From IMG/VR virus record IMGVR_UViG_3300045988_115054, positions 61,443 through 125,442 of that record: 64,000 nucleotides of DNA; one strand, given 5' to 3'. The notes beneath the pieces are model-generated. The model made no database searches. It had not been told where the DNA came from and was given only the letters and a program-made list of their open reading frames with translations. The DNA comes from a virus. The translations under genes were made by a program, and so were the position numbers. Positions 1 through 61,600 of the stretch are shown here, in pieces. Position 1 is the stretch's first letter. Every line of letters begins with the position of its first letter.

Positions 1-1099
1 AGTGCCGTTTATTTTGTGCGATTAATTGTGGAGATAAAATCGGTTTCGGGCATGATTGATCGAATTTATACATTTTTTTGGGAGTAATTTTGTGCAAAGG
101 TTGAGAGGTAGTTTGTGTAGGAATTTACTGGGATTTATGAGGGTGCCGATGGTCAAAATCGTGCTTCGAGAAGAGCCAAAAATCATGTTTCGATAAATTG
201 TGTAAAACTGTGTAAAATCTGATGTGAAAAATATAAGGAATTACTTAGGTTTTTGAGGGCAAAACTTGCATGAAATGGCGCAAAACAAAAACGTGTCGTC
301 GAGAGAATTGGGGAAAATAAAGGGGAAAATGGGGCTGATTTTTTGAAAAAGTGCGATTTTTGAAAGAAGGGGTTCTGAGAGCGTTGAAAAAAGAGTAGTA
401 AAATAAACGATTCGCTCGACGACGCCTCCGAAGACATGTTTTCGATTAGCAGAAAGTGTTTATCTAGGAAAGTGTAGGAAATTGCTTGTGAAAGTGCGGA
501 TTTTATGGCAGGGGGTCGAAAAATTTTTGTTGACACGGTGATTGAACACGTCCTGCCAGAATGACAGTTATTTCCAAAAATGTAAATGTTAACATACCCC
601 CGCTTTTTGATCTGGTGGTATAAAAATTACATGGTTAAAATTGTAAAAATCTATTTGAAATACTACAATTTTATCAAATGAATTTGGTAAATGATTGTAA
701 ATAATTTATAGACAGATCAGGATCAGGAGTGCAGATAATTTCCAACTATTTCCACATAGTATTCAAAACTACATGATAGTGTATCAGATGCTGTATAATA
801 TAATATGGTTTACAACGTGTCGTAGTATTCAAAAATAGGACTACTACTTTGCGACTATTTACACAACACTTGTCTGTTATCCAACACTTTTACATAATGT
901 GTTGGATAGTCTATCCACGCCATCAACACAAAATAAAACTTCACGCCACACCACGCCCACAAACCCACCTATAACTTCACTCTATACAAAACCACCAACC
1001 CATAGCTTTTGTCTATATCACTTGACAGCACCATAAAACCATGCTACACTACTAACCAAAACAAGCGTTCGATGTTTGGCAGACTTCCAGCGTTTGCAA

Positions 1100-1440
1100 T
1101 AATTACACAAATTAAAATATAAACTAAACATATTAATATATAGCAATCATATAAGATCAAACTATCATACATAAATAAATACATATACAAACATAACATG
1201 ATAGTATATCTTATACTATCACGCAAAATTAGATCCAAACTACTATAACTATACAAGTGCATATAATAGTATAACATACAACTATACACCACATATACCT
1301 GTGACATAATATATAGATATAGTACATATACATAATACTATATAATAATACACCTACGGCATAGGCAAGTGTTATACACTATACTATAACATATATACTC
1401 ATATATTATATTAATAATACTGTTATATACGTGTTTCTTC
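1100..1440. repeat. G-depleted low-complexity (ATA/ACA/TATA)n-like tract, non-coding
   Basis: Direct reading shows long runs of atacat/acatat/ataata words with almost no G on the + strand. The only ORF here (minus strand, 1044..1307) translates to Y/L/M-rich nonsense. Confidence 0.5.
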
Positions 1441-1541
1441 TATATTATAAGATCATTCTTTGCATGGTTACATTCTAAAGCATTTAAATGACTGTATAAG
1501 TGCTTATAGGTTTGTAGGTGCATACGGCAGAGTAAACAGTA

Positions 1542-1790
1542 TTATTGATCTTTTTTGCTTATAGTATCTTTCTTATTTAAAGATATAGATAGATTACAAT
1601 CTAAAGCATTTAAAAGCATAAAAAGAGTGTCTAACGTCATGTTTTTACTCCTACCGTTTAAAAGATTGCTTATAGTCTGTTTAGATAATCCCGTTGCAAC
1701 TACTATGTCTTTTTGCTTTAAATTATTATCCAACATATAATGTTTGATTCTTAAAATAAGATCATCTTGATTTTTTACAATATTATACAT
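1542..1790 (-). CDS. XRE-family helix-turn-helix transcriptional repressor (Cro/CI-like)
   Basis: The translation contains a classic HTH, LKQKDIVVATGLSKQTISNLLNG. An AGGAG RBS lies upstream on the minus strand. The gene is divergent from strong + strand promoters. Confidence 0.7.
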   Translation of the reverse strand: MYNIVKNQDDLILRIKHYMLDNNLKQKDIVVATGLSKQTISNLLNGRSKNMTLDTLFMLLNALDCNLSISLNKKDTISKKDQ

Positions 1791-1823
1791 ATAAAATTAC
1801 TCCTAAATTTATTCAAAAAAGTA

Positions 1824-1852
1824 TTGACATAGCAATACTAGTATTGTATAAT
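1824..1852 (+). promoter_or_regulatory. Consensus sigma70 promoter P1 (TTGACA-17-TATAAT) with a palindromic operator in the spacer
   Basis: TTGACA is at 1824-1829, a 17-nt spacer contains the perfect palindrome CAATACTAGTATTG, and TATAAT is at 1847-1852. Confidence 0.6.
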
Positions 1853-1951
1853 TATAACTGTCAAAAGGATAAGACATACAAGTCCAATCCGATTGATATT
1901 ATTATATCACGATTTACTCAAAAAAGTAAATCAAAAAAATTGAAAAAAGTA

Positions 1952-1981
1952 TTGACATAACAATACTAGTCATGATATAAT
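1952..1981 (+). promoter_or_regulatory. Duplicated near-consensus sigma70 promoter P2 (TTGACA-17/18-ATATAAT)
   Basis: About 45 nt including AAAAAAGTATTGACATA and CAATACTAGT are repeated about 128 nt downstream of P1. TTGACA is at 1952-1957 and ATATAAT at 1975-1981. Confidence 0.55.
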
Positions 1982-1989
1982 AAATACAA

Positions 1990-2790
1990 GTTAAAAGAGT
2001 AGCAAAACAAACGATCTTGATTGATCCGCAGAGTTTTAAAATCTCAATTAACTTACAACTTGTAAATTAAGCTTTATAAAAGGAGATGATAAACAATTAT
2101 ACAATTTAATATATTACCTATGATGATATAGGTTACTTAGGCAAAGAAAAAAGACTTGCTAAAGTCGTGATGATTCCAGCAAGCCTTTAAAGATATAAGA
2201 TATACCTTTACTTCGCAACTAAAGTATATCAGATATTATTCTTTATTGTCAATAATTCTTTTGACAATCTCCCACGAACGGCGAAAAATTGAATGATTTC
2301 AGTCCTTTATCATGATAGGATTGTATACCCTAGATAACGGAGGGTAAAGCTTCCAGGGTATACATAGAAGCACTATAAAAAGTGTAAACGTGATGAGTAA
2401 ACGCCGTGTGGCAGAGTAGGGAATAAACCGCAATCATAGGATAACGGGTAAAGGGTACGACTGGCAAACCTTCATATATTTGTTATATGTGAAGTTAACA
2501 ACTTAACATTGAACGGATCTAAACTTAAGGGTATCATTTTTTGATACTCTGTTTTTTTGAATTAAAACATCAAAACCCAAAGATTAACAATGATTCAACC
2601 AGTGATCTACTGGTTAAGATATCATAATTCTTTTATAGGTCGATGATGGGGTACAAATTAACGCCTTGCATGGTATGCACTCGAAAGACAAGCCACTGTC
2701 CATGACACTGTTATTTGTATCCATTCATGAACTTATAACTGAAAAATCCAGTCTTGAAAAGCTGGTCGTAGTATAAGGAGGTAAACAACT
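1990..2790 (+). other. Long (~800 nt) untranslated, hairpin-rich leader or candidate structured ncRNA downstream of the tandem promoters
   Basis: There is no ORF of 60 aa or more in any frame. Many inverted repeats are visible: CCTATGATGATATAGG, ATTGTCAATAATTCTTTTGACAAT, TGTATACCCT...AGGGTATACA and AACCAGTGATCTACTGGTT. GATAACGG(A)GGGTAAAG is duplicated. Confidence 0.3.
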
Positions 2791-3477
2791 ATGAATAATA
2801 ATTTTATGCCAATTGTTGAAAAAATCTGTTCTTTCCCACCTTCAGCACTAGATCGCACAGAAGAAGATGGTAAAGAACTGTTAAATCTTTGTAGAACATT
2901 GATGGACATGGTTAATATTCCATCAAATGCAGAAATCTATGAGATCCCTTTGATGAAAAACAATCAAGTTGTAATTTATTTCTTCTTAGAAAATGATGAT
3001 GAGAAAGAGTATTGTCTTAATGCTGGTCATTGGTTAGATGATACAATTTCCATGAAGCTAGAAGCATATGGGAAAGAAACGCATGAATACGATATTGAAA
3101 TGTATACAGCATTTGAATCTTTGCCATTAGATTATTTTGAGAATCATGAAAAAGAAAGTGAAAACACAAAAGTTGTAAGATTGTTTGAAAACAAATTAAA
3201 CAATGAAGGATCTTTATTTTTAAGTCCTTCAGAAAAAAGAAATATCGGTAGAGTAGGTGTAAAAGCCTACTACGGTATGTTGGAAGTATATAAAGCATAC
3301 AGCCCATATACAAGAAACGTGTATGGTGTTAGCTTTACACAAAATGAGTATATAAAATTTATGTACTCTGAAAATAACATTGGCAATTGTGAACATTGCC
3401 CGGAGAATAACGGCGGTAAAGGTTTACACCCTTGCAATCAACCGAATTGTTGGGTATCTTGCCATTGTAACCAGTAA
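2791..3477 (+). CDS. hypothetical early protein with a Cys/His-rich C-terminus
   Basis: A strong AAGGAGGT RBS lies 7 nt upstream. This is a 228-aa ORF. The C-terminus reads NCEHCPENNGGKGLHPCNQPNCWVSCHC. Confidence 0.6.
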   Translation: MNNNFMPIVEKICSFPPSALDRTEEDGKELLNLCRTLMDMVNIPSNAEIYEIPLMKNNQVVIYFFLENDDEKEYCLNAGHWLDDTISMKLEAYGKETHEYDIEMYTAFESLPLDYFENHEKESENTKVVRLFENKLNNEGSLFLSPSEKRNIGRVGVKAYYGMLEVYKAYSPYTRNVYGVSFTQNEYIKFMYSENNIGNCEHCPENNGGKGLHPCNQPNCWVSCHCNQ

Positions 3478-3585
3478 ACCAAAGGCACGATCTAAAAAAG
3501 ATTGTGTCTTTTTTATTACAAGTAAACAAAATCCCGCTTTTATAGAAATGTAAGTCGGGTATCTAAAGAAAGAAGGTATATTATT

Positions 3586-4524
3586 ATGATGATGAATAAG
3601 GCAAATGAAGCAAAAGCAAGAAATCTTGTAGAAGAATATCTTGTAAAAAATGATGATATTGAATCATTTGAAGAATTCATGGAAGAATTATACAAAGATC
3701 CCAACATGATGATCGATAATTTAGAATGGCGTGCTAACGGAGGAATCATGAGAGATGAAACACTTCCAGGTGGCTACAGTGATGCTTGCAAACAGATTTT
3801 AGAAATTGTTAGATATTCAAATATGAATATTAAAGAAATTGAATCATTAACATATGATGAAGTAAAAAACATAGCACTTGATCATATAGTAATCAAGGAC
3901 CATGATTGTTTCTTTGTTGATTTAGGAAAATACTTTGGATATTCAGTTCTTATTTTTAAGAACAAAAAACATATTTATTATGCTAATGATTATCAGTTGC
4001 ATCATCCAGCAACCAACATTCAAGAATTAAGAAAACGATACATAGAACGCTTAAATGAGTCACTATTTTTGGATAGTGACTTTTTGTTTCCAGTGTCAAC
4101 ATATGATGACTATCAACGTAAGAATAACTATCTTTTGAATTATTACTCACAAAGATATGATTCTTTGTCAATGTATTATTGCGGTTTTACACCTGATAAA
4201 AAGAAAGAAGCTGAGTTTAAAAAACTAAAGAAAGAATACAAATATTTTTCAACTGTATGCTTCTGTTACTTTAAAGATAAAAAAATAGTTGATACATTGG
4301 CAAAATATAAACAGATTTTAGAAGATTCATTTTCAGAAATGAAAAAAACAGATGATGAATTCAGAAAGATGATTCGAAAAGAACTTGCTAATCATGAATT
4401 TTGTATCATGCAAGATCCAACTGATACATTGGATAGTTTAGGATTAACCAGGGATGAATTATCTTATAATCAAGAAATGATCTTGCAAGAAGAAATGAAA
4501 AGAAATGTGGAAATGTATTACTAA
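3586..4524 (+). CDS. hypothetical protein
   Basis: This is a 312-aa ORF. An AGAAAGAAGGTA RBS motif upstream is shared with neighbouring genes. Confidence 0.55.
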   Translation: MMMNKANEAKARNLVEEYLVKNDDIESFEEFMEELYKDPNMMIDNLEWRANGGIMRDETLPGGYSDACKQILEIVRYSNMNIKEIESLTYDEVKNIALDHIVIKDHDCFFVDLGKYFGYSVLIFKNKKHIYYANDYQLHHPATNIQELRKRYIERLNESLFLDSDFLFPVSTYDDYQRKNNYLLNYYSQRYDSLSMYYCGFTPDKKKEAEFKKLKKEYKYFSTVCFCYFKDKKIVDTLAKYKQILEDSFSEMKKTDDEFRKMIRKELANHEFCIMQDPTDTLDSLGLTRDELSYNQEMILQEEMKRNVEMYY

Positions 4525-4544
4525 GAATAGAAAGAAGGTATATT

Positions 4545-4943
4545 ATGAGTTGCACATATAATAAAGAAATTAATGAAAAGATCAAAAATTATCTAACAGA
4601 ATCAATTGTAGATTGGTTAGAAGCTAATGAATATGATAAAAAGGACTGTGAAAACAGTCCTTTTTTAACATATTGGAACATCATTAAATCAGAAATTAAC
4701 GGCGGTATTTATGACAAATACACTAATTTTGAAAAATGGAAACATTTCCACATGGGTTTACGTGGGTTTGGTGCTGATATTTATTGTCGATATAAAGATG
4801 ATGAACGAGTATCAAGTATTATTATGAAAGACTGGACTGGTAGAGAAGTTATTGACGTAGAAAAAACAGCAAACACAATGGACTATCTTTGTTTTAGGGA
4901 GTTTAGAAAGCTACTTGAGAAAGAAAGTAATGTGATCATTTAG
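4545..4943 (+). CDS. hypothetical protein
   Basis: This is a 132-aa ORF with a GAAAGAAGG RBS, tightly packed on the + strand. Confidence 0.5.
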   Translation: MSCTYNKEINEKIKNYLTESIVDWLEANEYDKKDCENSPFLTYWNIIKSEINGGIYDKYTNFEKWKHFHMGLRGFGADIYCRYKDDERVSSIIMKDWTGREVIDVEKTANTMDYLCFREFRKLLEKESNVII

Positions 4944-4956
4944 GGGGTTATCAATC

Positions 4957-5172
4957 ATGAAAATAATACATACAAATAACGGTGGTTTATTTACAATTAA
5001 AAAAACACAAAACGGAATTTTTGTAGAAGGGTTTGGTGGTGCCGATAATGAAATGTGCATACCAGATCATGAAATAGTAATGTTATTAAATTACTATCAT
5101 AATTGCAAAGAAGGGTTGGAATCACAAGATTATATTAACGATAAACCATACACACTAAAAGATATTGAATAA
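4957..5172 (+). CDS. hypothetical small protein
   Basis: This is a 71-aa ORF with a GGGGGT purine-rich RBS. Confidence 0.45.
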   Translation: MKIIHTNNGGLFTIKKTQNGIFVEGFGGADNEMCIPDHEIVMLLNYYHNCKEGLESQDYINDKPYTLKDIE

Positions 5173-5188
5173 AAGGAGTGTTTGAACT

Positions 5189-5551
5189 ATGGAACAATAT
5201 TTATATGCTGATGAATATGATGACAATGAGATTAAAATTCTAACGGTTGGACAACTGTTAGAATTTTTTAATAAATCGGATGATAAAAAGAACGGTTCAA
5301 GTTTAGATGATTATATTCAAGATAATATAAGAATGGATCTTATTGAAGCGTTCTGCCCACATAAAGAAGCAGAAACGGTTGTATGTGATTTACAACCATT
5401 AGCAAAACAGTATATCTTGCAAGAAGCTGAGAAGGTTTTTAATGGTATGCCGTGGGTAGATACTCAAGAAGAACTGGATAACGTGTATCATGAGAAAATC
5501 AAGAACTTATATGATACAGTTGATTTTTCAGAGTTTGTAGCATATTTATAG
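5189..5551 (+). CDS. hypothetical acidic protein
   Basis: This is a 120-aa ORF with an AAGGAG RBS. Confidence 0.5.
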   Translation: MEQYLYADEYDDNEIKILTVGQLLEFFNKSDDKKNGSSLDDYIQDNIRMDLIEAFCPHKEAETVVCDLQPLAKQYILQEAEKVFNGMPWVDTQEELDNVYHEKIKNLYDTVDFSEFVAYL

Positions 5552-5563
5552 ATTGAATATTAT

Positions 5564-5596
5564 AGACAAGTCAAAACATGACTTGTCTATTTTGTT
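5564..5596 (+). terminator. rho-independent terminator
   Basis: A 9-bp stem, AGACAAGTC-aaaacat-GACTTGTCT, is followed by ATTTTGTT. Confidence 0.6.
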
Positions 5597-5644
5597 GAAC
5601 TTATAAATATTTAAAGTCCCGTAAAGGGCAGAAAGAAGGATATT

Positions 5645-5896
5645 ATGAGAAAATATAGAGTGATTTTCGGTTATTATAGCGAACTTGTAGAACTTGACGA
5701 ACCTACAACGGATTATGGTGCAATCTTAGATCTTGCGATCGATCAACTAGAATCTGATGGAAATATGGGTGTATTTGTTTCAGATGATGACATAGAACGT
5801 GATGGAATCAATGATGATATGTATATTACTGGTGGAAATCACGGACTCAACTTATATCATGGTGGTAATTTTATGATAGAAAGAGTTAATGAGTAA
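5645..5896 (+). CDS. hypothetical protein
   Basis: This is an 83-aa ORF. It is preceded by a conserved about 40-nt 5' UTR element (see findings). Confidence 0.45.
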   Translation: MRKYRVIFGYYSELVELDEPTTDYGAILDLAIDQLESDGNMGVFVSDDDIERDGINDDMYITGGNHGLNLYHGGNFMIERVNE

Positions 5897-5913
5897 AGAA
5901 AGAAGGAAGAATA

Positions 5914-6108
5914 ATGGAAAATAAGACACAACTACATAAACCAAAACTAACAGATATAGCAGTTGCGATTGTATGGATTGTAACGGTTATTGTTACGTTT
6001 ATAAGAATACCGCAAGCCTTCATTTTAGAAGCATTATTGGTAATGATTACCGCTGTCTATATGCTTGCTTGCGTTGGATTTTTTGATGATACAGATATAG
6101 AAGAATAG
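5914..6108 (+). CDS. small hydrophobic (membrane) protein
   Basis: This is a 64-aa ORF with a GAAAGAAGGAAG RBS. It carries two hydrophobic stretches. Confidence 0.45.
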   Translation: MENKTQLHKPKLTDIAVAIVWIVTVIVTFIRIPQAFILEALLVMITAVYMLACVGFFDDTDIEE

Positions 6109-6128
6109 GAAAGAAGGTACAGAACGCA

Positions 6129-6734
6129 ATGAAAACAAAACAGAATAAAACAATCAAGATCCTATTAGCTGTAGCATTTATGTTTACAGCTTTTTTAATG
6201 CTGGAAAATACTATACACGCAAAGACAAAAAACACGTGCAGAACTATAAACGGTATTTATAACAGTGACGGTACAATTGATACAGCAGATGGTCATTGCT
6301 GGAAAGTTCGTAAGGAATCATATGCCTATCCAGGGACTACACTCGTAACTGTAAAATTTAACACACACGGCACTAGAAACAAGCTCGATGATTCTATTGT
6401 AAAGATCAATGCAAAGAACAGAAATATTCAGCTTGTAAACGATTATATACGACATGAATACGATCTAAATGCCTATAAGGTAAAGTATATCAGCACTGGA
6501 AAACTAACGGATAAAATGATTCGTGAACGTGCTACACGGCATACTATTTATGTGGAAATTATTAAAAGTGTTTCTGCCGGAGGTAGTCATGGAACGTATG
6601 GAAAAGGTTACTACCTTGCGTATAACAAACGTGTAAGAAAAGGAAAGCACGTGACAAGTTATTGTGTATGGAATCCTTGTAATAGTTACTGTGATGATAT
6701 AGAAGCGATCGCAGATAATGGAAAAATCAGATAA
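6129..6734 (+). CDS. secreted protein with a Sec signal peptide, function unknown
   Basis: The N-terminus MKTKQNKTIKILLAVAFMFTAFLMLENTIHA-KTK has a basic n-region, a hydrophobic h-region and an AXA-like cleavage site. The C-terminal part is Cys-rich. Confidence 0.55.
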   Translation: MKTKQNKTIKILLAVAFMFTAFLMLENTIHAKTKNTCRTINGIYNSDGTIDTADGHCWKVRKESYAYPGTTLVTVKFNTHGTRNKLDDSIVKINAKNRNIQLVNDYIRHEYDLNAYKVKYISTGKLTDKMIRERATRHTIYVEIIKSVSAGGSHGTYGKGYYLAYNKRVRKGKHVTSYCVWNPCNSYCDDIEAIADNGKIR

Positions 6735-6752
6735 AAAGAAGGTTAGAACGAC

Positions 6753-6947
6753 ATGACAACTGTTACTATTTATAGAAACAAAAGGAACAAAAATAAATAT
6801 ATAGAAGTCCATAACGATGGATACTATCATAATTCCATTAAACAGTTTATGCAATGGAAGAAAGATCGCAATGGAAATCAGCTTGCCAAACCGATTAGAA
6901 ATGAAATGGGTGATCGAGTGTTACATAGATGGAAAAAGCAAACTTGA
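6753..6947 (+). CDS. hypothetical basic small protein
   Basis: This is a 64-aa ORF with an AAAAGAAGG RBS. Confidence 0.4.
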   Translation: MTTVTIYRNKRNKNKYIEVHNDGYYHNSIKQFMQWKKDRNGNQLAKPIRNEMGDRVLHRWKKQT

Positions 6948-7002
6948 TGACGTTACTAGAAGATTATGAACTGATTACAGCATAGAAAGAAGGTATGGAC
7001 CT

Positions 7003-7242
7003 ATGAAAAATAAAAGTATTGTTTCAGTATTCGACGCAACTAAAGGAGAATTTACAGAAGAAAAAATGTATTATTTACCACCAAAAAAAGCACTTATTTG
7101 CGAAATAATGCAACGAAAAGGAAATTATAATACAAGTAATTATCCAAAAAATTTAGATGGAATTTATAAGTCAAAAGTAATTAAAGATCGTTTATTATAC
7201 GATTTTTCAGAAAATATTATCTTATATAGTCAAGGAATGTAA
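7003..7242 (+). CDS. hypothetical protein
   Basis: This is a 79-aa ORF with a GAAAGAAGGTA RBS. Confidence 0.45.
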   Translation: MKNKSIVSVFDATKGEFTEEKMYYLPPKKALICEIMQRKGNYNTSNYPKNLDGIYKSKVIKDRLLYDFSENIILYSQGM

Positions 7243-7262
7243 TAAAGGAAGGTGTATATCAA

Positions 7263-7535
7263 ATGGAAATTTTAAAAATGACAAGAACAAACATGGTAGT
7301 GATTCAGACAGTAGAAAAGGAAGAACGAAACACTTTTGATATTGGAAAAATCAGAGTCGCCGCCTTGCCACCGATAGCAAAGAAAGATCTTATCGCAGAA
7401 CTTAAAAGTAAAGGCTTCTGCGATGGAATGATTCATACAGCTTTACAATGTAAGTTAGAAGATCTGAACGGATATGTGAACGTGTGGAAATATGTAGCAT
7501 ATATCCTTGCTGTAGAACTGATGGAAAGATTATAA
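7263..7535 (+). CDS. hypothetical protein
   Basis: This is a 90-aa ORF with an AAGGAAGG RBS. Confidence 0.45.
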   Translation: MEILKMTRTNMVVIQTVEKEERNTFDIGKIRVAALPPIAKKDLIAELKSKGFCDGMIHTALQCKLEDLNGYVNVWKYVAYILAVELMERL

Positions 7536-7686
7536 GAAATGATTAGGTTTAAATTTAAGGATCGTAACGGAAAGATTTTGTTCTATACGTTTGATTCAGT
7601 TAGTGAAGCTAGACATTTTGCAAAAGAAAACTTCTTGCATTTCTTAGGAATATGGATACGACTGTTTTAGAAGGAAGGTGGAAATT

Positions 7687-7863
7687 ATGATCGTAAAAAA
7701 TACTTATTCCGATGGTAGAACAGAAATTTTTTGTAATACACCTGATGAATACAATGACTTATGCTGTGAGTACGATCTTGAAGATTGCGGTATGAGTGGA
7801 AAATACGTTGGATCTAGTTGGAGCCACGATGATAAGAACAATGTAGATGTTTATTATAGATAG
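7687..7863 (+). CDS. hypothetical small protein
   Basis: The ATG follows the conserved GAAGGTGGAAATT RBS block. The ORF track started at an in-RBS GTG at 7678. Confidence 0.4.
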   Translation: MIVKNTYSDGRTEIFCNTPDEYNDLCCEYDLEDCGMSGKYVGSSWSHDDKNNVDVYYR

Positions 7864-7879
7864 AAAGTAGGTGGAAATT

Positions 7880-8035
7880 ATGTGGTACTCATTAGAAAAC
7901 GGAAAAGATTGTTGCTTAGGTGTGAAATACACATTGAATGATGCAGAACTAGAAGCACGGAATAATCCAATGATAAAAGAAATTTTTGAATATGATAATA
8001 ACGATGAATTAATTGGTTGTGTATGGTCAAGAAAG
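7880..8035 (+). CDS. hypothetical small protein (51 aa)
   Basis: An AGTAGGTGGAAATTATG initiation region precedes the ORF. It falls below the ORF-track size cutoff but is in frame through to a TAG. Confidence 0.35.
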
Positions 8036-11639: not shown

Positions 11640-11667
11640 TTGACAGTGTGTAGATATTGTGTATAAT
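11640..11667 (+). promoter_or_regulatory. sigma70 promoter of hicAB (TTGACA-16-TATAAT)
   Basis: TTGACA is at 11640-11645 and TATAAT at 11662-11667. It is preceded by TGTGTAAAA direct repeats. Confidence 0.5.
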
Positions 11668-11692
11668 ATAAGTAAGTAAAGGAGACAATACA

Positions 11693-11866
11693 ATGAAGCA
11701 GAAAGATTTAATCAAGAAGCTCAAAGCAGGCGGATTTGTCTTTGACAGACATGGCGGTAACCATGATATCTACATCAAAGGAAACAAAGTTGAATCAGTT
11801 CCACGGCACAAGGAAGTTGATGAAAGACTTGCTAAAGAGATTCTAAGAAGGAACGGGCTGTTATAA
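11693..11866 (+). CDS. hicA: HicA-family mRNA interferase toxin (57 aa; not in ORF track)
   Basis: The translation is MKQKDLIKKLKAGGFVFDRHGGNHDIYIKGNKVESVPRHKEVDERLAKEILRRNGLL. It matches the HicA pattern GF...R..GSH.......V.VP.H. An AAGGAGA RBS is present. Confidence 0.7.
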   Translation: MKQKDLIKKLKAGGFVFDRHGGNHDIYIKGNKVESVPRHKEVDERLAKEILRRNGLL

Positions 11867-11924
11867 TACAGCCTGCCCTTGGAAAATCTTGTTTGCAATC
11901 ATATATAAGAATAGAGGTGAAAAT

Positions 11925-12359
11925 ATGAAAGCAGTATATCCTGTACTATTTACAAAAACCGATGACGGAAAATATTTAATTGAGGCACCAGATTTAAATG
12001 TATTAACGGAAGGAAAAGATATGTCGGATGCTATTAAAATGGCACGAGACGCAATGGAATTAACTTGTGTTTCTATGGAAGATAGAGAGGTGGAAATTCC
12101 TAAACCAACAAATATTACAGATATCGATATTGCGAAAAGCACATTTTTTGATGAAGGAGAAACTATTATTTCATTGGTTGATATTGATTCAACAGAATAT
12201 CGAAGAAAAATTGATACAAAATCTGTAAGAAGAAATGTTGCATTACCTAGTTGGTTAAATTATGAAGCAGAACATTCTGGAATTAATGTTTCTAAAGTGT
12301 TACAAGATGCACTTATTCAAGTATTGAATGTTACTGATAGACCAAATTATAATAAATAA
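11925..12359 (+). CDS. hicB: HicB-family antitoxin
   Basis: The N-terminus MKAVYPVLFTKTDDGKYLIEAPDLNVLTEGKDMSDAIKMARDAMEL matches the HicB N-domain. A GAGGTGAAAATATG RBS and start are present. The gene lies immediately downstream of hicA. Confidence 0.7.
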   Translation: MKAVYPVLFTKTDDGKYLIEAPDLNVLTEGKDMSDAIKMARDAMELTCVSMEDREVEIPKPTNITDIDIAKSTFFDEGETIISLVDIDSTEYRRKIDTKSVRRNVALPSWLNYEAEHSGINVSKVLQDALIQVLNVTDRPNYNK

Positions 12360-55755: not shown

Positions 55756-57349
55756 CATTTTGAACGATTGCAGAGGACTTTTTGAAGATGAGGTATTTGA
55801 AATTATCATGCAGGAGCGTGGTATTGATGATCCAGAACATTTTCTAAATCCTACGGAAGATGATTTACTTCCTCTTGATGACTTAAAAAATATTGATAAA
55901 GCATATAAGCTTTTGGTAGATGCAGTATACAAAGATAAACGTATTGCAGTACATTTTGATACAGATACTGACGGAATCACATCTGGTGCCATTATGACAC
56001 GATATTTAAAAAACATGACAGAAAATCCAGTAGATGTATACATTAACCGAGGCAAACAGCATGGATTAGTAAATCAGGACATTGCTAAGTTTTATGGGTA
56101 TGATTTACTGATTGTCGTTGATAGTTTAGATAAAGACGAGACTCAGTATAAGGATTTAAAAGAAACAGGAGTTGATGTGATTGTGTTAGACCACCATGCC
56201 ATCGATCCAGATGTTCCTTATGACAACTATTGCACATTAGTTTCTTCTCAGAGAGAATATGAAAATCCACAGCTATCTGGCGCAGGTGTTGTTTGGAAGT
56301 TTTGCAAGTATATTGATGAGCAGAATGGTACAGATTATGCAGATGATTTGGTCGATCTAGCAGGCGTTGGGCTGATTGCAGATATGATGGATATGAGAGT
56401 AATGGAGAATCGTTACATTGTATCCGAAGCTTTGAAAGAAATTAGAAATCCTGCGATTAAGAAGATTATTGGTGGATTTGAATTCAACAGCACAGCAGTT
56501 GCTTTTAGTATTGCACCGTTGGTTAATGCTGCAAACAGAATGGATCAGAATGAAATTGCTCTAAATGCTTTCCTTGAAGATGACAATAAAAAGTTACGAG
56601 GATATATTAAACAGTTAAAGCAATGCAAAGAAGACCAAAATGAAGAGGTCGCACAGCTGATGCCAATGATTGCAGAGCAGTGTGAGGCTCAGAGTGATAA
56701 AAAGATGATCACAACTTTTATTGACACTGATTATGGTATTTCTGGATTAATTGGGAACAAGTTACTTGAAAAATATCAGAAACCGATTCTTGTGCTAAAG
56801 AAAAATGAAGATACATACGCAGGATCTATGCGAGCTGTTGGTGTCAAAGACTTTAGACAGATGTGTAATGATAGTCAATTGGCTGAAGCGAATGGACATG
56901 AACTTGCCAGTGGTATTGAAATTCCTAGAAAGAACTTTACCGAGTTCACCTCTTATATAGAAGAAACTCTTCCAGATAAACCAGAAGATACAACAGTTGA
57001 TGTCGATATTATGCTTGATATTTCAGACATTACAAGAAAAATGGTTGACACGATTAAGAAAATTGATCGTATTTCTGGGCAGGGATTTAAGCCTGTAAGA
57101 GTTTATATTGAAGAGATTGACGACTATGACATTGGTCAGATGAGCAATTATAAACATCTTGTCCTGAAACCATGTAACAATGATAAATTGTGGATCATTA
57201 AATGGAACTATGATGGATCGTTTGAGGATATGGAAGACCATTCTATGATGAATGATGAGTTTTGTGCAGTTACTACACTTGATTGCGGATTCTTTGGAAG
57301 AAAGTTTGTGCTGAAAGCTGTGTGTGATTCACTTGAAGAGGTGGGATGA
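55730..57349 (+). CDS. recJ: RecJ-like DHH-family ssDNA exonuclease
   Basis: DHH motifs I (VHFDTDTDGITSG) and III (VIVLDHHAIDP) are present. The size and domain order resemble RecJ. Confidence 0.6.
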   Translation: MKTSKKKYNILNDCRGLFEDEVFEIIMQERGIDDPEHFLNPTEDDLLPLDDLKNIDKAYKLLVDAVYKDKRIAVHFDTDTDGITSGAIMTRYLKNMTENPVDVYINRGKQHGLVNQDIAKFYGYDLLIVVDSLDKDETQYKDLKETGVDVIVLDHHAIDPDVPYDNYCTLVSSQREYENPQLSGAGVVWKFCKYIDEQNGTDYADDLVDLAGVGLIADMMDMRVMENRYIVSEALKEIRNPAIKKIIGGFEFNSTAVAFSIAPLVNAANRMDQNEIALNAFLEDDNKKLRGYIKQLKQCKEDQNEEVAQLMPMIAEQCEAQSDKKMITTFIDTDYGISGLIGNKLLEKYQKPILVLKKNEDTYAGSMRAVGVKDFRQMCNDSQLAEANGHELASGIEIPRKNFTEFTSYIEETLPDKPEDTTVDVDIMLDISDITRKMVDTIKKIDRISGQGFKPVRVYIEEIDDYDIGQMSNYKHLVLKPCNNDKLWIIKWNYDGSFEDMEDHSMMNDEFCAVTTLDCGFFGRKFVLKAVCDSLEEVG

Positions 57350-58611
57350 TTATGGCAGGAAAAGAAGTATTTTGTTCAGTCTGCGGTTTATCATCTACTT
57401 TGGACGGACATTTTTGGAAAGAAAAGAAGTTGTGCAACAGACACAATATGCAGTTAGAAAAACATGGAAAACTGTTAGATAAAGATATAGTGATCCCTAA
57501 AAAGAGGCATAGATGGACTCCAGAAGAAGAAGTCAGATTAGAAGAGTTGTATAAACAAGGAGTTTCTTTTGAAAAAATTAGTAAACAAATGAATCTATCC
57601 GTGGCAGCCATAGCGGCTCGAAGTCGTCATTTGAATCTTGGCAATAAGTATATGAGGTCTAATAATCCTAATTTTAAAGCCACATATCAGGATTATGATT
57701 GGTGTTATGAAAGATATGTTGTTAAGGGAATGACTCATCAAGAAATGGCAGATGAATGTGGTGCCTCGTTAAGAGTTATTCAGAAATGGTGTTCTGAAGT
57801 TCATAAATTAAATTGTTGGACTTTCAAAAACAATAAGACATTAACCGATAAACAGTATCAAATTATTTTATTTGGCACATTAGGAGATGGGCATATTGAT
57901 AAGAGAGAGACGCAACCTTTGTATATTGAATGTCATTCTATAGCAGAAAAGGATTACGTGTTTTGGAAATATGAAGAATTAAAAGATTTATGTAACTCTG
58001 AGCCAAAGTATTATGAAGGTGGCTATAAAGATTTTGGTTCTGGTACAAAGTATTGGTGTAAACCACATTACAGATTTGAGACAAGAATTATTAATCAATT
58101 GAAGGACATTCGAGACATGCCAAGAATCAATAAGATTTGGCAATTGAATGAATTTGGATTATCTCTTCATTGCTTAGACGATGGATGCAGAGGTAAATCA
58201 GCGTGGGAATTATGTTTGGCAGAATATACTCAGCAAGAAATTGATTTATATATCAAGCTGTGTAAAAAGAGATTTGGGTTATATGCTAAACAGCAGACAG
58301 ATAAAAGATATATAAGATTTGATTCAGATTCAAGTAGAATTATTGATCAAATTATTTTAAACAATATTCCTAATTCGCTTGACATTATCAAAAAGAAGAT
58401 ATTAGAAAACGATAAAATTTCTAAAAAAGTAAGATACATTTATGTTGTCATGCAGAACGGAGAACAGATTGGTTTATCTACATATTGTAGATCTCATGGT
58501 ATTCCATATGAAAAGACAAGAAAATATGTCATTGAGCACAATATCTCTCGAATTCAAGAAGCTGATCTACTAAATAGATTAAAAGCTGGAGGATTAATGA
58601 ATGCGGTATAA
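57346..58611 (+). CDS. free-standing homing endonuclease (LAGLIDADG-like, two motifs) with an N-terminal Zn-finger/HTH region
   Basis: LFGTLGDGHIDKRE and LHCLDDGCRGKS are LAGLIDADG-like. The N-terminus reads CSVCG...CNRHNMQLEKHG. The gene overlaps both flanking genes by a few nucleotides. Confidence 0.45.
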   Translation: MIMAGKEVFCSVCGLSSTLDGHFWKEKKLCNRHNMQLEKHGKLLDKDIVIPKKRHRWTPEEEVRLEELYKQGVSFEKISKQMNLSVAAIAARSRHLNLGNKYMRSNNPNFKATYQDYDWCYERYVVKGMTHQEMADECGASLRVIQKWCSEVHKLNCWTFKNNKTLTDKQYQIILFGTLGDGHIDKRETQPLYIECHSIAEKDYVFWKYEELKDLCNSEPKYYEGGYKDFGSGTKYWCKPHYRFETRIINQLKDIRDMPRINKIWQLNEFGLSLHCLDDGCRGKSAWELCLAEYTQQEIDLYIKLCKKRFGLYAKQQTDKRYIRFDSDSSRIIDQIILNNIPNSLDIIKKKILENDKISKKVRYIYVVMQNGEQIGLSTYCRSHGIPYEKTRKYVIEHNISRIQEADLLNRLKAGGLMNAV

Positions 58612-61600
58612 CAATTATCATAAACACGATCATGTGTCAAATATCTTTACCCCAGATACAAATACTAAACAAGAAGAGTATATTCTTAAAGCATTGGAGT
58701 ATGGGCATACAAGTTATTATAGTACGAATCATGGCAGTTTTGGAGATATCTTTGAAGCCAGAACATTGTGTAATAAGTATGGATTGCGTTGTATTGCAGG
58801 CATCGAAGGATATATTGTCCCAAATGCGTCGCAAAAAGACAAAAGGAATTATCATATTATAGTGATCCCTAAAACCGATGAAGCCAGAAAGAAGATGAAT
58901 TATGTATCAAGTATGGCAAACATCAAAGGGTTTTATTATAAACCAAGATTTTTTTTATCTGATTTATTAAAACTTGATCCCAATGATGTTTATATTACAA
59001 CTGCATGTGTAGCAGGATTATTACGAGATGAGGATTCAATTAATGAGATTTTTATGCCTCTATATAAGCATTTTAAAGAAAATGTAATGCTAGAAGTTCA
59101 GACTCATGATGATCCGTTGCAAATTGAAATCAATAAAAAGGCAATATATCTGTCTGATCAATATGGGTTAAGCTTAATTGCTGCAAATGATTCACACTAT
59201 ATTGACGAATCAGGCAAAGAAGAACGTCTGGAATTATTGCGAGGTAAACATATCAATTACGGCAGTGAAGACGATTTTATATTAGATTATCCTACTGCTG
59301 AAACAATGATTGAAAGATTCAAAAAACAAGGCGTTTTGACAGATAGACAAATCTCAGATGCATTAAATAACACATTGTTGTTTGATGAATGTGAAGAAAT
59401 ACAACTCGATTATTCAATTAAAATGCCTACGATTTATCCTAACTTGACTCCCGAACAAAGAGTGGGTCTTCTAAAAAAAGAAGTAAATAAACGGTTCAAG
59501 GAGATTCGAAAAGAAGAACATATTGAAGGAGAAGAGTTTAAAAAATATAAAGATGGAATTCGATATGAGATGAAAATCATCGAGGATACTAACGATGAAA
59601 TACATACAGCGGACTATTTTTTGTTTAATGAGAAAAATGTAGATCTTGCAGTTAATAAATATGGTGGTGTATTGACTCGTGGTGGAAGAGGTAGTTGCGG
59701 TTCCTTCTATATAAATAGGATATTGGGAATGACACAACTAGATAGATTTAAAATTAATCTTCCGCTTTTCCCAGACAGATTTGCTTCTACTGCCAGATTG
59801 CTAGAGAATCGCTCATTGCCCGATATAGATTTTAACGTAAAATCCCAAGAACCATTTATTAAAGCTTCAAGGGAATTGCTTGGTGAACACGGGTGTTATC
59901 CAATGTATGCACCAGGAACCATGCAAATATCTGAAGCATTTAGAAATGTATGTAGATCTAAGAATATGTCATTTGACGAATTTAATCATGTGGCAAAAAA
60001 TCTGGAAGAATATCAAGATGATCCGAAATGGAAACCGATTATCGAAGAGGCAAATCGCTATGTTGGAACAATTATATCTGGTTCTGTACATCCTTGCGCC
60101 CATATTTTAAGCAACACTAATTTGCTTTATGAGTACGGTGTTACTCGTTTAGGTGAAAACGTATGTGTTTTAATTACTTCATCTGAAGCAGATGAATATA
60201 AGGTACTTAAAAACGATTATCTTATCGTCACGGTCTGGAAGCTTATTGACGAAACATTTAAAGAGATTGGAATTCCGATTATTAAGGCAAATGAATTATT
60301 GGATAAAATTAAAGATGATCAGAGAATATGGGATTTATTTAAAAATGGTATTACATGTACTTTAAATCAGGTTGATAGCGACAATGGATGTAGACAAGCA
60401 AAACAGTATGGTATTTCGTCATTTGAGGATGGCGCCCATATTGCAGCAGCCATAAGACCGTCTTTTGATTCATGGAGAGAACAGTTTTTAGACAGAAAAC
60501 CATATACAACTGGTTCAGATCAGCTTGACGATGTTTTGAAAGATACTCATGGATACATTTTATTTCAAGAATCATTAATGCAATATTTTGACTGGTTGGG
60601 GGTTAGTCCAGCTGAATCTATTGGTTTAATTAAGAAAATTTCCAAGAAAAAAATTAAACAATCGGATTTTGATAATCTTGAGGAAAGAATCAAAAAGCAA
60701 TGGATTATTAATACTGGCTCAGAAGAAATGTTTTCCGAAACATGGCATTTGGTACAAAGTTGTATGAGTTACGGATTTTGTTCAGCCCATGCAGCAGCAA
60801 CCTCATTGGACATGTGTTATGGAGCATATCTAAAGGTCAATTATCCTTACGAATACTACAGTGTTTGCTTCAATAATTACGTTGGAGACAAAGAACGAAC
60901 GAATAAACTAACAAATGAGTTAGAGTATTTTGGTATTAAATTAAGCGACATTAAGTTTAGACACTCTAACTCAAAATATTCTTATGATAAAGAGGGTCAT
61001 ACAATATTCAAAGGCATGTCGTCCATTAAATTTGTTGGAGATAATGTTGGAGAAGAACTGTATGCATTACGAGATAATCAATATGATTCTTTTATAGATT
61101 TGTTGCAAGACATATCTAATACATCTGTCAATTCTAAACAGTTAGATATTTTAATTAAATTAGATTTCTTTTCTGAATTTGGAGACATTAATTATCTACT
61201 TAAACAGGTTGAGTGCTATGACAAATTCTATGGCAGAAAACAGTTTACAATTTCGAAGCTCCAAAAAGAAGGCGAAGATATTGAATTAATCAAAAAGTAT
61301 TGTCAGAAACAGACAGAAAAAACATTGAAAGAATTTGATTATATTGGATTTTTGAAAGATATGACATCAAGTATGGCATATTCACTAGTTTCAATAACTG
61401 AACGGATGGATTATCAGAAAGAATATATTGGTTACATCAGTTACATTAACCCTAACATTGGCAAGCGATATTACTATGTCAAAGATTTATCTGTAACAAA
61501 ATCCATCGTCAACATTCAGTTATATGAAATTTATTCTGGAAAAACACAGAAAGTAAAAATGTGGACAACCCAATATAAGAAGAATCCATTCGATGAAGGA

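Follow-up and report, generated by a model that had tools for sequence, protein, structure and literature searches.

A putative two-layer immunity and early-gene switch, with an embedded predicted antisense RNA and a structured leader, in an uncultured human-gut phage

Immunity regions of the Cro/CI (XRE-family) type are represented in temperate phages by immC of the heteroimmune lambdoid series lambda/434/P22, and heteroimmune allelic series are typical of temperate phages. RNA-based phage immunity is known from P22 sar, P1/P7 c4 and the P4 CI RNA, and Gram-positive plasmids carry countertranscript systems (prgQ/prgX of pCF10 with Anti-Q, pIP501 with RNAIII, pT181); presentation of a tail to a loop is the usual arrangement in antisense systems. 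HK022 putL/putR exemplify processive antitermination RNA, and processed or stabilized early leaders include those of the T7 A1-A3 promoters with their RNase III sites, the early RNA of B. subtilis phage SP82 and STAB-SD elements. For gut Firmicutes, to our knowledge, RNA-level control of phage early genes has hardly been studied by experiment. Transcriptional interference between convergent lytic and lysogenic promoters is an established concept (PMC5001618). The promoters pR and pL of coliphage 186 are an example. Here we analyse a locus in a 64,000-nucleotide (nt) stretch of viral DNA (the window; positions 61,443 to 125,442 of IMG/VR record IMGVR_UViG_3300045988_115054), in which a small repressor gene diverges from two tandem promoters of an early operon. 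We propose, with a probability of about 0.6, that this locus is an immunity/early switch that combines repressor control with control by an antisense RNA and by leader structure.

For comparison we used 45 distinct leaders from relatives of the phage, which are IMG/VR contigs of 150-169 kb (~160 kb) and human-gut metagenome contigs; individual relatives are labelled by L-numbers (e.g. L003, L011). A first-pass annotation of the window had described two consensus promoter cassettes 128 nt apart with CAATACTAGT..TG in each spacer, a perfect 14-bp palindrome in the first spacer, and an XRE repressor gene divergent from both. All of these elements are present:

1542-1790, minus strand: repressor gene, an 82-amino-acid (aa) open reading frame (ORF) with a Cro/CI-type helix-turn-helix (HTH), immunity type A, divergent from P1 and P2
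1824-1852, plus strand: promoter P1, TTGACA (1824-1829), 17-nt spacer, TATAAT (1847-1852), 12/12 consensus, predicted start near 1859
1833-1846, unstranded: predicted operator O1, CAATACTAGTATTG, perfect 14-bp palindrome in the P1 spacer
1901-1930, minus strand: candidate repressor promoter PX, TTTACT-18-TGaTATAAT (extended -10), 10/12 plus TG
1952-1981, plus strand: promoter P2, TTGACA (1952-1957), 18-nt spacer, TATAAT (1976-1981), TG-extended, 12/12 consensus, predicted start near 1988
1961-1974, unstranded: predicted operator O2, CAATACTAGTCATG, near-copy of O1 in the P2 spacer

The repressor matched HTH_26 (E = 1e-11) and HTH_3 (E = 1e-7) in Pfam, and its PHROG matches are transcriptional repressor families; its Shine-Dalgarno (SD) sequence AGGAG reads from the complement of 1800-1804. 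Within positions 1-8000, only P1 and P2 match the promoter consensus at 12/12, and the plus strand of the whole 64 kb holds one further such match. P1 and P2 lie in a 32-nt repeat with 94% identity between copies 128 nt apart. O1 and O2 are the only operator matches with at most one mismatch in the 64-kb window, where 0.32 would be expected. Directly 3' of P2 follows the motif ACAAGTTAARAGA, which is invariant in every relative. The layout of repressor gene, P1, ~128-130 nt, P2 and ACAAGTTAARAGA is kept in the relatives while the spacer sequence varies; two promoters are present in most relatives, certain operator types have weaker hexamers, and in type C no P1 was detected at the scan's 10/12 threshold.

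Seven repressor sequence types were found, each with its own spacer palindrome carried by both promoters in a one-to-one relation: CAATACTAGTATTG, ATCAAGT-N4-ACTTGAT, TAACAAATATGTTA, ATATCAAATATGATAT, CATAAAAGATATG, CATAAAAGTTATG (a one-base variant of CATAAAAGATATG) and GTAGCAAATATGCTAC. Four hybrids (L011, L021, L024 and L025) carry type A and type B repressor genes in tandem, in a two-gene stretch about 430-670 nt upstream of the leader start, and it is precisely in these four that P1 carries the A palindrome and P2 that of type B. Because repressor type and palindrome change together, including in these hybrids with one operator per promoter, the comparison bears out the repressor-operator pairing, and the spacer palindromes can be assigned as operators of the adjacent HTH proteins about as strongly as sequence evidence allows. 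The operator proposed by the first-pass annotation is thereby supported by seven type pairings in addition to the two-repressor hybrids. In some operator types (e.g. L007 and L008), further palindromes that resemble operators lie either upstream of P1 or in the interval between the two promoters. As an XRE-type immunity switch, the protein part of the locus is ordinary; its allelic series is unusually clean.

PX, the candidate promoter of the repressor gene, stands face-to-face with P1 and back-to-back with P2. A minus-strand TGn-extended -10 occurs at the equivalent position in operator types A, B, C and E and is displaced in type D. Another minus-strand site, TTGACA-18-TAGTAT at 1864-1835, was dropped as repressor promoter because the other operator types do not conserve it. 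On the plus strand, a promoter-like site at 1022-1050 (TTGACA-17-TGcTACACT) points antisense into the repressor gene.

The first-pass annotation had noted an unusual density of inverted repeats downstream of P2. Part of that density, at 2147-2217, belongs to a predicted antisense gene on the minus strand that it had overlooked:

2223-2252, minus strand: predicted antisense promoter Pas, TTGACA (2252-2247), 18-nt spacer, TGaTATACT (2231-2223), 11/12 plus TG
2147-2217, minus strand: predicted antisense RNA gene, ~70 nt, with single-stranded 5' tail, stem-loop 1, 13-bp terminator stem-loop and U6
2199-2230, plus strand: predicted leader target hairpin, whose loop CUUCGCAAC (2211-2219) complements the antisense RNA 5' end

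Pas is the third-best promoter match in the first 8 kb and one of two minus-strand matches of at least 11/12 in the 64 kb. It is kept in all 45 leaders (TTGACA-17/18-TGnTATACT in 32, TTGACT-17-TGgTATCCT in 13), across allele classes whose surrounding sequence differs, and a hairpin plus U-run lies downstream of it in every one. Counted from the predicted start, the transcript would be 57-72 nt long across classes and end in a 13-15-bp stem and U5-6. Five of the six allele classes share a fold of about -22 kcal/mol, in which 7-12 nt of unpaired 5' tail are followed by a stem-loop of 7-10 bp and a terminator of 13-15 bp; the sixth has a weak first hairpin, and its RNA probably ends at a second U-run.

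Compensatory changes affect 9 of the 14 pairs of the antisense terminator, and 92% of cells pair, compared with 30-65% when partners are slid; none of 500 shuffles reached the observed value on any of five measures. Several positions that form G.U pairs on the minus strand would be A.C if read from the opposite strand. At exactly 2140-2210, the mean folding energy over all leaders favours the minus strand by 6-9 kcal/mol. Comparison of the relatives thus argues for a small-RNA gene on the minus strand, embedded in the leader, with its own promoter, terminator and conserved structure. In per-allele folds, all six classes present the complement of the antisense 5' end in a 7-11-nt hairpin loop of the leader, with z between -2.9 and -6.4 in five of them. 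Pairing of the antisense RNA with the downstream leader was not allele-specific, as matched pairs were not preferred. A 15-nt identity to the antisense region at 11823-11837 was rejected as a trans target, being within the hicA coding sequence.

The remaining features belong to the plus strand of the leader:

1988-2790, plus strand: non-coding 5' leader of the early operon, ~803 nt from the P2 start to the ATG at 2791
2011-2029, plus strand: hairpin near the 5' end, containing a bulged C, compensatory changes in 5 of 6 pairs (16 sequences)
2078-2085, plus strand: SD-like polypurine AAAAGGAG, in four of six allele classes, with no conserved ORF
2303-2455, plus strand: central structured domain, closed by helix Ha and holding hairpin Hb/Hc (2323-2363) and the core
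2303-2314 with 2445-2455, plus strand: helix Ha, spanning ~140 nt, 98% paired, 4 of 11 pairs compensatory
2470-2494, plus strand: hairpin CUUCAUAUA / UAUGUGAAG, 4 of 9 pairs compensatory, 100% of cells paired, one U.G pair
2506-2558, plus strand: conserved box ACAUUGAACGG..CUUAAGGGU and predicted intrinsic terminator T1, stem 2528-2536 / 2542-2550 followed by G U7
2634-2737, plus strand: 3' rod, an imperfect long hairpin of ~100 nt, RNAalifold consensus
2754-2793, plus strand: pre-SD hairpin (CCAGUC..GCUGG, 2754-2771), SD AAGGAGG (2775-2781) and first-gene start codon

In agreement with the first-pass annotation, which had noted some 800 nt free of ORFs, no ORF lies between P2 and the ATG at 2791 (803 nt). 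The leaders of the 45 relatives are 693-981 nt long and contain no ORF of at least 55 aa. The strength of P1 and P2 suggests an abundant transcript, and the polypurine AAAAGGAG may act as an mRNA stabilizer. The leader (813 nt) folded to -199.5 kcal/mol, compared with -159.5 ± 7.1 for shuffles (z = -5.65), and the reverse strand gave z = -5.9. When GC-regressed folding energies were ranked for excess over 473 windows, the leader took the 6th, 11th and 25th places. The leader is clearly hairpin-rich, though not to an extreme degree and not the window's most structured place; the density of inverted repeats noted earlier is real. The most over-folded stretch is 3200-3530, the 3' end of the first early gene and its terminator (-94.8 kcal/mol, z = -6.6), in which 3241-3510 ranks 1 of 473.

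Structure in the leader begins at the transcript's predicted 5' end, where invariant AAGUUAA (1988-1994) pairs with UUAACUU (2047-2053) in a terminal stem around the 5' hairpin, in both minimum-free-energy and centroid folds. The central domain was tested jointly with the 2470-2494 hairpin and T1. Compensatory changes affect 15 of the 49 pairs, and pairing holds in 94% of cells, compared with 34-54% after sliding. Helices 4 and 5 of the 3' rod contain five compensatory pairs and G.U pairs specific to the plus strand, with 98% pairing compared with 36-42% after sliding. Many plus-strand G.U pairs are A.C mismatches on the opposite strand. Compensatory pairs thus occur in the 5' hairpin, the central domain and the 3' rod, in addition to the antisense terminator, when related phages are compared as the first-pass annotation had suggested, and its proposal of a long non-coding leader holds, this leader being structured and conserved. 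The comparison argues for RNA-level selection on the plus strand of the leader.

The central domain contains a 19-nt core, CAGAGUAGGGAAUAAACCG (2412-2430), which is invariant among leaders carrying the domain and confined to this phage clade (25 stretches in IMG/VR). In 13-15 of the 45 relatives, about one third of these near-identical phages, the domain is replaced by unrelated sequence. The domain also holds the duplicated GATAACGG..GGTAAAG element, to which the first-pass annotation had rightly drawn attention. Copy 1 (TAACGGAGGGTAAAG at 2335) is the Hc loop of hairpin Hb/Hc and copy 2 (TAACGGGTAAAG at 2442) is the 3' arm of Ha; both complement 2303-2314, and they co-vary with it between allele classes. 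This three-way complementarity persists in two other classes despite different segment sequences and points to alternative pairings. Duplexes of the 2303-2314 segment reach -7 to -12 kcal/mol within a class, compared with -1 to -5 between the window's class and L003 or L004; the L003 and L004 segments pair together almost as well as within a class. A third copy of the element, TAACGG..GTAAAG at 3408 (in gene 1, 73 nt before the second terminator), was considered as a terminator-linked motif and attributed to chance, since local alignment of the two regions scored 22, which 14% of control windows equalled or exceeded.

Identity between leaders ranges from 67 to 98%, and they are assembled from exchangeable cassettes with borders on short invariant boxes. 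Each module exists in 5-8 sequence classes (eight interchangeable ones for the 5' domain). The block from ~2062 to 2527 is mostly inherited as a unit, and operator type, 5' domain and 3' domain assort freely. The first gene, where present, is mostly 99-100% identical (range 94-100%), and about 20 of the 45 leaders precede a different first gene. The swapping of modules beside a first gene that is near-identical where it is shared clearly illustrates diversifying selection on immunity determinants. The RNA modules show allelic diversity of the kind seen in the operators, which is consistent with a role as specificity determinants; physical linkage alone could explain it as well.

The box ACAUUGAACGG..CUUAAGGGU is kept in nearly all relatives, and T1 is canonical in 31 of 45 leaders. 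A promoter-like site within T1 (TTGAAC-17-TATCAT) was rejected because its -10 is destroyed in relatives retaining the hairpin, and the promoter scan found no promoter-like sequence between T1 and the first gene. Terminator-like hairpins without intervening promoters lie at 2528-2558, 3481-3519 and 5562-5590. Since no promoter follows T1 and more terminator-like hairpins lie inside the operon, read-through must occur. At the site of the pre-SD hairpin, other alleles carry a different hairpin, and the alternative 3' cassette has a different sequence and a similar layout. Gene 2 is preceded by the same hairpin type (3531-3565). Hairpins of these kinds are found ahead of the SD of various early genes, also in the L042 and L067 leaders, and accompany the gene on cassette exchange; they may be processing sites or recombination boundaries for the shuffling of early-gene modules.

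We propose that a Cro/CI-type repressor binds the spacer palindromes of the tandem sigma-A-type promoters P1 and P2 and would thereby shut off the rightward early operon. Transcripts from P1 and P2 would open with the ~800-nt non-coding leader as a chain of conserved RNA structures. Pas, convergent and ~230 nt into the leader, would produce an antisense RNA of ~70 nt with a free 5' end complementary to the leader hairpin loop. Pairing of this RNA with the nascent leader could lower early expression via duplex cleavage, refolding or premature termination, and by convergent transcription strong firing of P1/P2 may silence Pas, and the reverse. The outcome would be a two-layer (protein plus RNA) bistable switch, with early expression presumably locked off in the presence of repressor and locked on after P1/P2 have fired. 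The central domain, T1 and the 3' rod by the ribosome-binding site would most likely set the number of transcripts that reach the first gene, their processing and their stability.

Several points weigh against this switch. The promoters, transcript ends and antisense RNA are all predictions from sequence, and we infer that the region is transcribed, in which direction regulation runs and how the RNAs act at each step. The compensatory changes are drawn from 3-6 allele classes per module, amounting to few independent events. RNAalifold gave no consensus in the region of the target hairpin, where the stem register differs by class, and the hairpin is supported by six independent folds rather than column-wise covariation. 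No plus-strand hairpin plus U-run lies between 2217 and 2527, which places the first terminator ~310 nt from the antisense target; because no terminator adjoins that target, classical countertranscript attenuation is not obviously applicable. In 12 of 45 leaders the T1 stem co-varies (GGGUGUUU/AAACACUC) and the U-run is 8 nt off. No convincing anti-terminator pairing for T1 was found; a 5-7-nt complementarity (ACCCU, 2328-2331 region), seen by eye, has no covariation support.

A bolder version of the RNA layer, which we regard as possible and hold tentatively, is that the leader's exchangeable structured domains (central domain, T1 box and 3' rod) act jointly with the antisense RNA as an undescribed RNA-based second system of immunity or commitment. 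The leader would take alternative conformations, with 2303-2314 choosing among two or three partners, and this choice would decide whether polymerase passes into the early operon. Allele-specific RNA-RNA recognition might then have been diversified by the same selection as the repressor-operator pairs.

The segment from P2 to T1 (~1988-2558, ~570 nt) could alternatively be a free-standing, abundant non-coding RNA that acts in trans as decoy, anti-defence RNA or scaffold, the early genes being served by read-through. Such an RNA would account for the consensus promoters, for a canonical T1 in most relatives, for extensive conserved structure around an invariant core and for a central block inherited largely as one unit. 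We nevertheless consider it unlikely: the operon needs read-through anyway for want of a promoter between T1 and the first gene, about one third of these near-identical phages have exchanged the central domain for unrelated sequence, and neither similarity to ROOL, GOLLD or other Rfam families nor a complementary trans target in the window was found. Rfam covariance models, which the first-pass annotation had recommended as a check, gave no relevant match, either for the whole window at the gathering threshold or for 1-3600 on both strands at E <= 10. The relaxed cut-off returned only chance-level matches to eukaryotic small nucleolar RNA and microRNA families, and none to ROOL, GOLLD, OLE, HEARO, raiA, T-box, tmRNA or group I/II introns. 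The same search bears on processive antitermination, by a put-like RNA or a nut-like site for a phage protein, which would carry polymerase through T1 and later terminators. The terminator-like hairpins inside the operon and conserved stem-loops that begin at the very 5' end of the transcript would suit it, yet no antitermination family matched (whether Rfam holds a put model is unverified), and the 5' domain exists as eight interchangeable classes. We found nothing in support of the put-like antiterminator named in the first-pass annotation and regard antitermination as quite improbable.

A riboswitch or other ligand-sensing attenuator, formed by the central domain and T1, has an attractive outline, with covarying stems around an invariant 19-nt core in an aptamer-like layout, one segment with two or three alternative partners, and a terminator 70 nt downstream. 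Its probability is lower again, given that the core is limited to this clade and belongs to no Rfam family, that 13-15 of 45 relatives have a different domain at the same place, and that no anti-terminator pairing was identified. A riboswitch aptamer would be expected wherever the unit it regulates occurs, and usually in more than one taxon. We give little credence to the view that the inverted repeats act as DNA, in a replication origin, a packaging site or recombination boundaries: both strands do fold equally well overall, and cassette boundaries coincide with conserved boxes, which suggests recombination there, but the helices accept G.U and not A.C, the favoured strand flips exactly at the antisense gene, one helix spans ~140 nt, and the folded units are flanked by promoters and terminators. 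Least probable by our estimate is that the leader conceals small protein genes. The window's allele class has a 7-codon ORF (2086-2109) after the SD-like AAAGGAG within AAAAGGAG; it loses frame or start codon in the other classes, no ORF of at least 18 codons in the leader has an SD, and none is common to the allele classes.

The window has a G+C content of ~33%, carries every gene from 2791 onward on the plus strand, and encodes DnaB, a RecJ-like DHH protein, DNA polymerase III alpha, two Bro-N proteins and an SPFH protein. Nucleotide searches of cultured phages and plasmids gave no match, nor did a search with the gene 2 protein. By DNA polymerase III alpha (42% aa identity), the nearest cultured phages are C. 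difficile phiCD211/phiCDIF1296T and C. botulinum c-st; phiCD211-like phages and c-st, distant relatives by this measure, are large temperate or plasmid-type prophages. A hicA/hicB toxin-antitoxin pair lies at 11640-12359 (Pfam E = 5e-12 and 3e-10), preceded by the only 12/12 promoter of the window besides P1 and P2 (11640-11667). Morons and addiction modules typically look like this, and the pair would suit a phage living as a prophage or plasmid. A second module of like design occupies 33745-34058: a gene for a 67-72-aa Cro/C1-type HTH protein (33745-33963, minus strand; HTH_26 E = 3e-14) diverges from a near-consensus plus-strand promoter, TTGACA-17-TATATT with TG (34030-34058), which stands ~55 nt ahead of the next gene (34113) and has no long leader.

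We conclude that the phage is probably temperate because of its relatives by polymerase, hicAB, Bro-N, the second HTH-plus-promoter module and the heteroimmune allelic series. Two negative results limit this conclusion: neither the window nor the examined flanks of the locus showed an integrase or partition gene, and a search of 185,579 species-representative genomes and of plasmids yielded no prophage copy. A scan with a 19-nt pattern for prophages or hosts gave six matches in genome contigs, which came from unrelated taxa and are consistent with chance.

Other observations concern the surroundings of the locus. Upstream of the repressor gene, ~1.5 kb (1-1540) are gene-poor and 78-92% conserved in relatives. 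Within it, the tract 811-1215 is C-rich and G-poor and contains the two least foldable of the 473 windows, and a small minus-strand ORF (183-437/536) keeps its length in relatives. At 33567-33704 lies a tRNA-like gene (Rfam tRNA, 46.4 bits; not called by ARAGORN) in which the anticodon loop is replaced by an AT-rich insert of ~81 nt; candidates are a tRNA with an intron, a disrupted tRNA and the remnant of an attachment site. A LAGLIDADG homing-endonuclease-like ORF (57346-58611) stands between the RecJ-like and DNA polymerase III alpha genes and overlaps the ends of both. Three locus-bearing metagenome contigs (L094, L097 and L100) measure 202-218 kb, 40-60 kb more than the ~160-kb IMG/VR contigs, and may include host flanks or represent larger relatives.

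The region is the probable master switch of an uncultured ~160-kb human-gut phage family. Its seven apparently orthogonal repressor-operator pairs on consensus Gram-positive promoters, natural two-repressor hybrids among them, offer ready-made parts and a clean test set for HTH specificity, and the antisense RNA and covarying leader provide falsifiable hypotheses on RNA-level control of early genes in gut Firmicutes phages. As far as our tools and a shallow literature search show, no described system unites tandem consensus promoters that bear operators, a convergent small-RNA gene embedded in the leader and ~550 nt of further covarying leader structure.

Several known systems share part of this architecture. 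ROOL and GOLLD of Rfam are likewise structured RNAs of several hundred nt in genomes of Firmicutes-infecting phages; the present RNA differs from them in its 5'-leader position and cassette-like allelic replacement and did not match them even at E <= 10. As with HK022 put, a structured RNA lies just 3' of early promoters with terminators further on, but it has no detected similarity to put and is built differently and on a much larger scale. Tandem strong host-type promoters, hairpins in leader-gene and intergenic positions, an SD-like polypurine without an ORF and a 5'-terminal stem recall the early leaders of T7 and SP82 and the STAB-SD elements, which in contrast have neither repressor operators nor an antisense gene.

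The protein layer resembles lambdoid immC, where a small HTH repressor also diverges from early promoters, several copies of a palindromic operator overlap these promoters, and repressor and operator vary jointly in natural allelic series. In the present locus, however, each of two tandem consensus promoters, which point the same way and lie 128 nt apart, has its operator in the spacer. The repressor, at 77-86 aa, is without a cleavage domain, a cro-like gene was not identified, and the leader that follows is 800 nt long. The facing promoters are reminiscent of pR and pL in phage 186, in that a strong lytic promoter faces a weaker leftward one and a repressor of the lytic promoter would relieve the interference. 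Unlike in 186, Pas lies ~230-390 nt downstream and is followed immediately by a strong terminator; because this terminator follows at once, the main product of Pas is probably a small RNA rather than a repressor mRNA.

The RNA layer is closest in design to two groups. In pCF10, pIP501 and pT181, as here, a small terminated antisense RNA arises from a promoter within the 5' leader of its target and the target is placed in a hairpin loop, and pCF10 also has an XRE-type repressor gene upstream that is read in the same direction as the antisense RNA. In the present locus no terminator adjoins the target on its downstream side, whereas such a terminator, formed only on binding of the antisense RNA, is the one testable hallmark of attenuation of the pT181/pIP501 type. 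The locus would regulate a phage early operon rather than rep or conjugation genes and has no sequence or Rfam similarity to the plasmid systems. With P22 sar, P1/P7 c4 and the P4 CI RNA it shares a small RNA that would act on the early or antirepressor mRNA and add a layer of immunity to that of a protein repressor, and allelic diversity consistent with specificity determinants. In contrast to P4 CI and P1 c4, the predicted RNA is cis-encoded and fully complementary and would be expressed from its own promoter instead of being processed from a leader, and the leader that surrounds it is far longer and more structured than in any of these phage systems.

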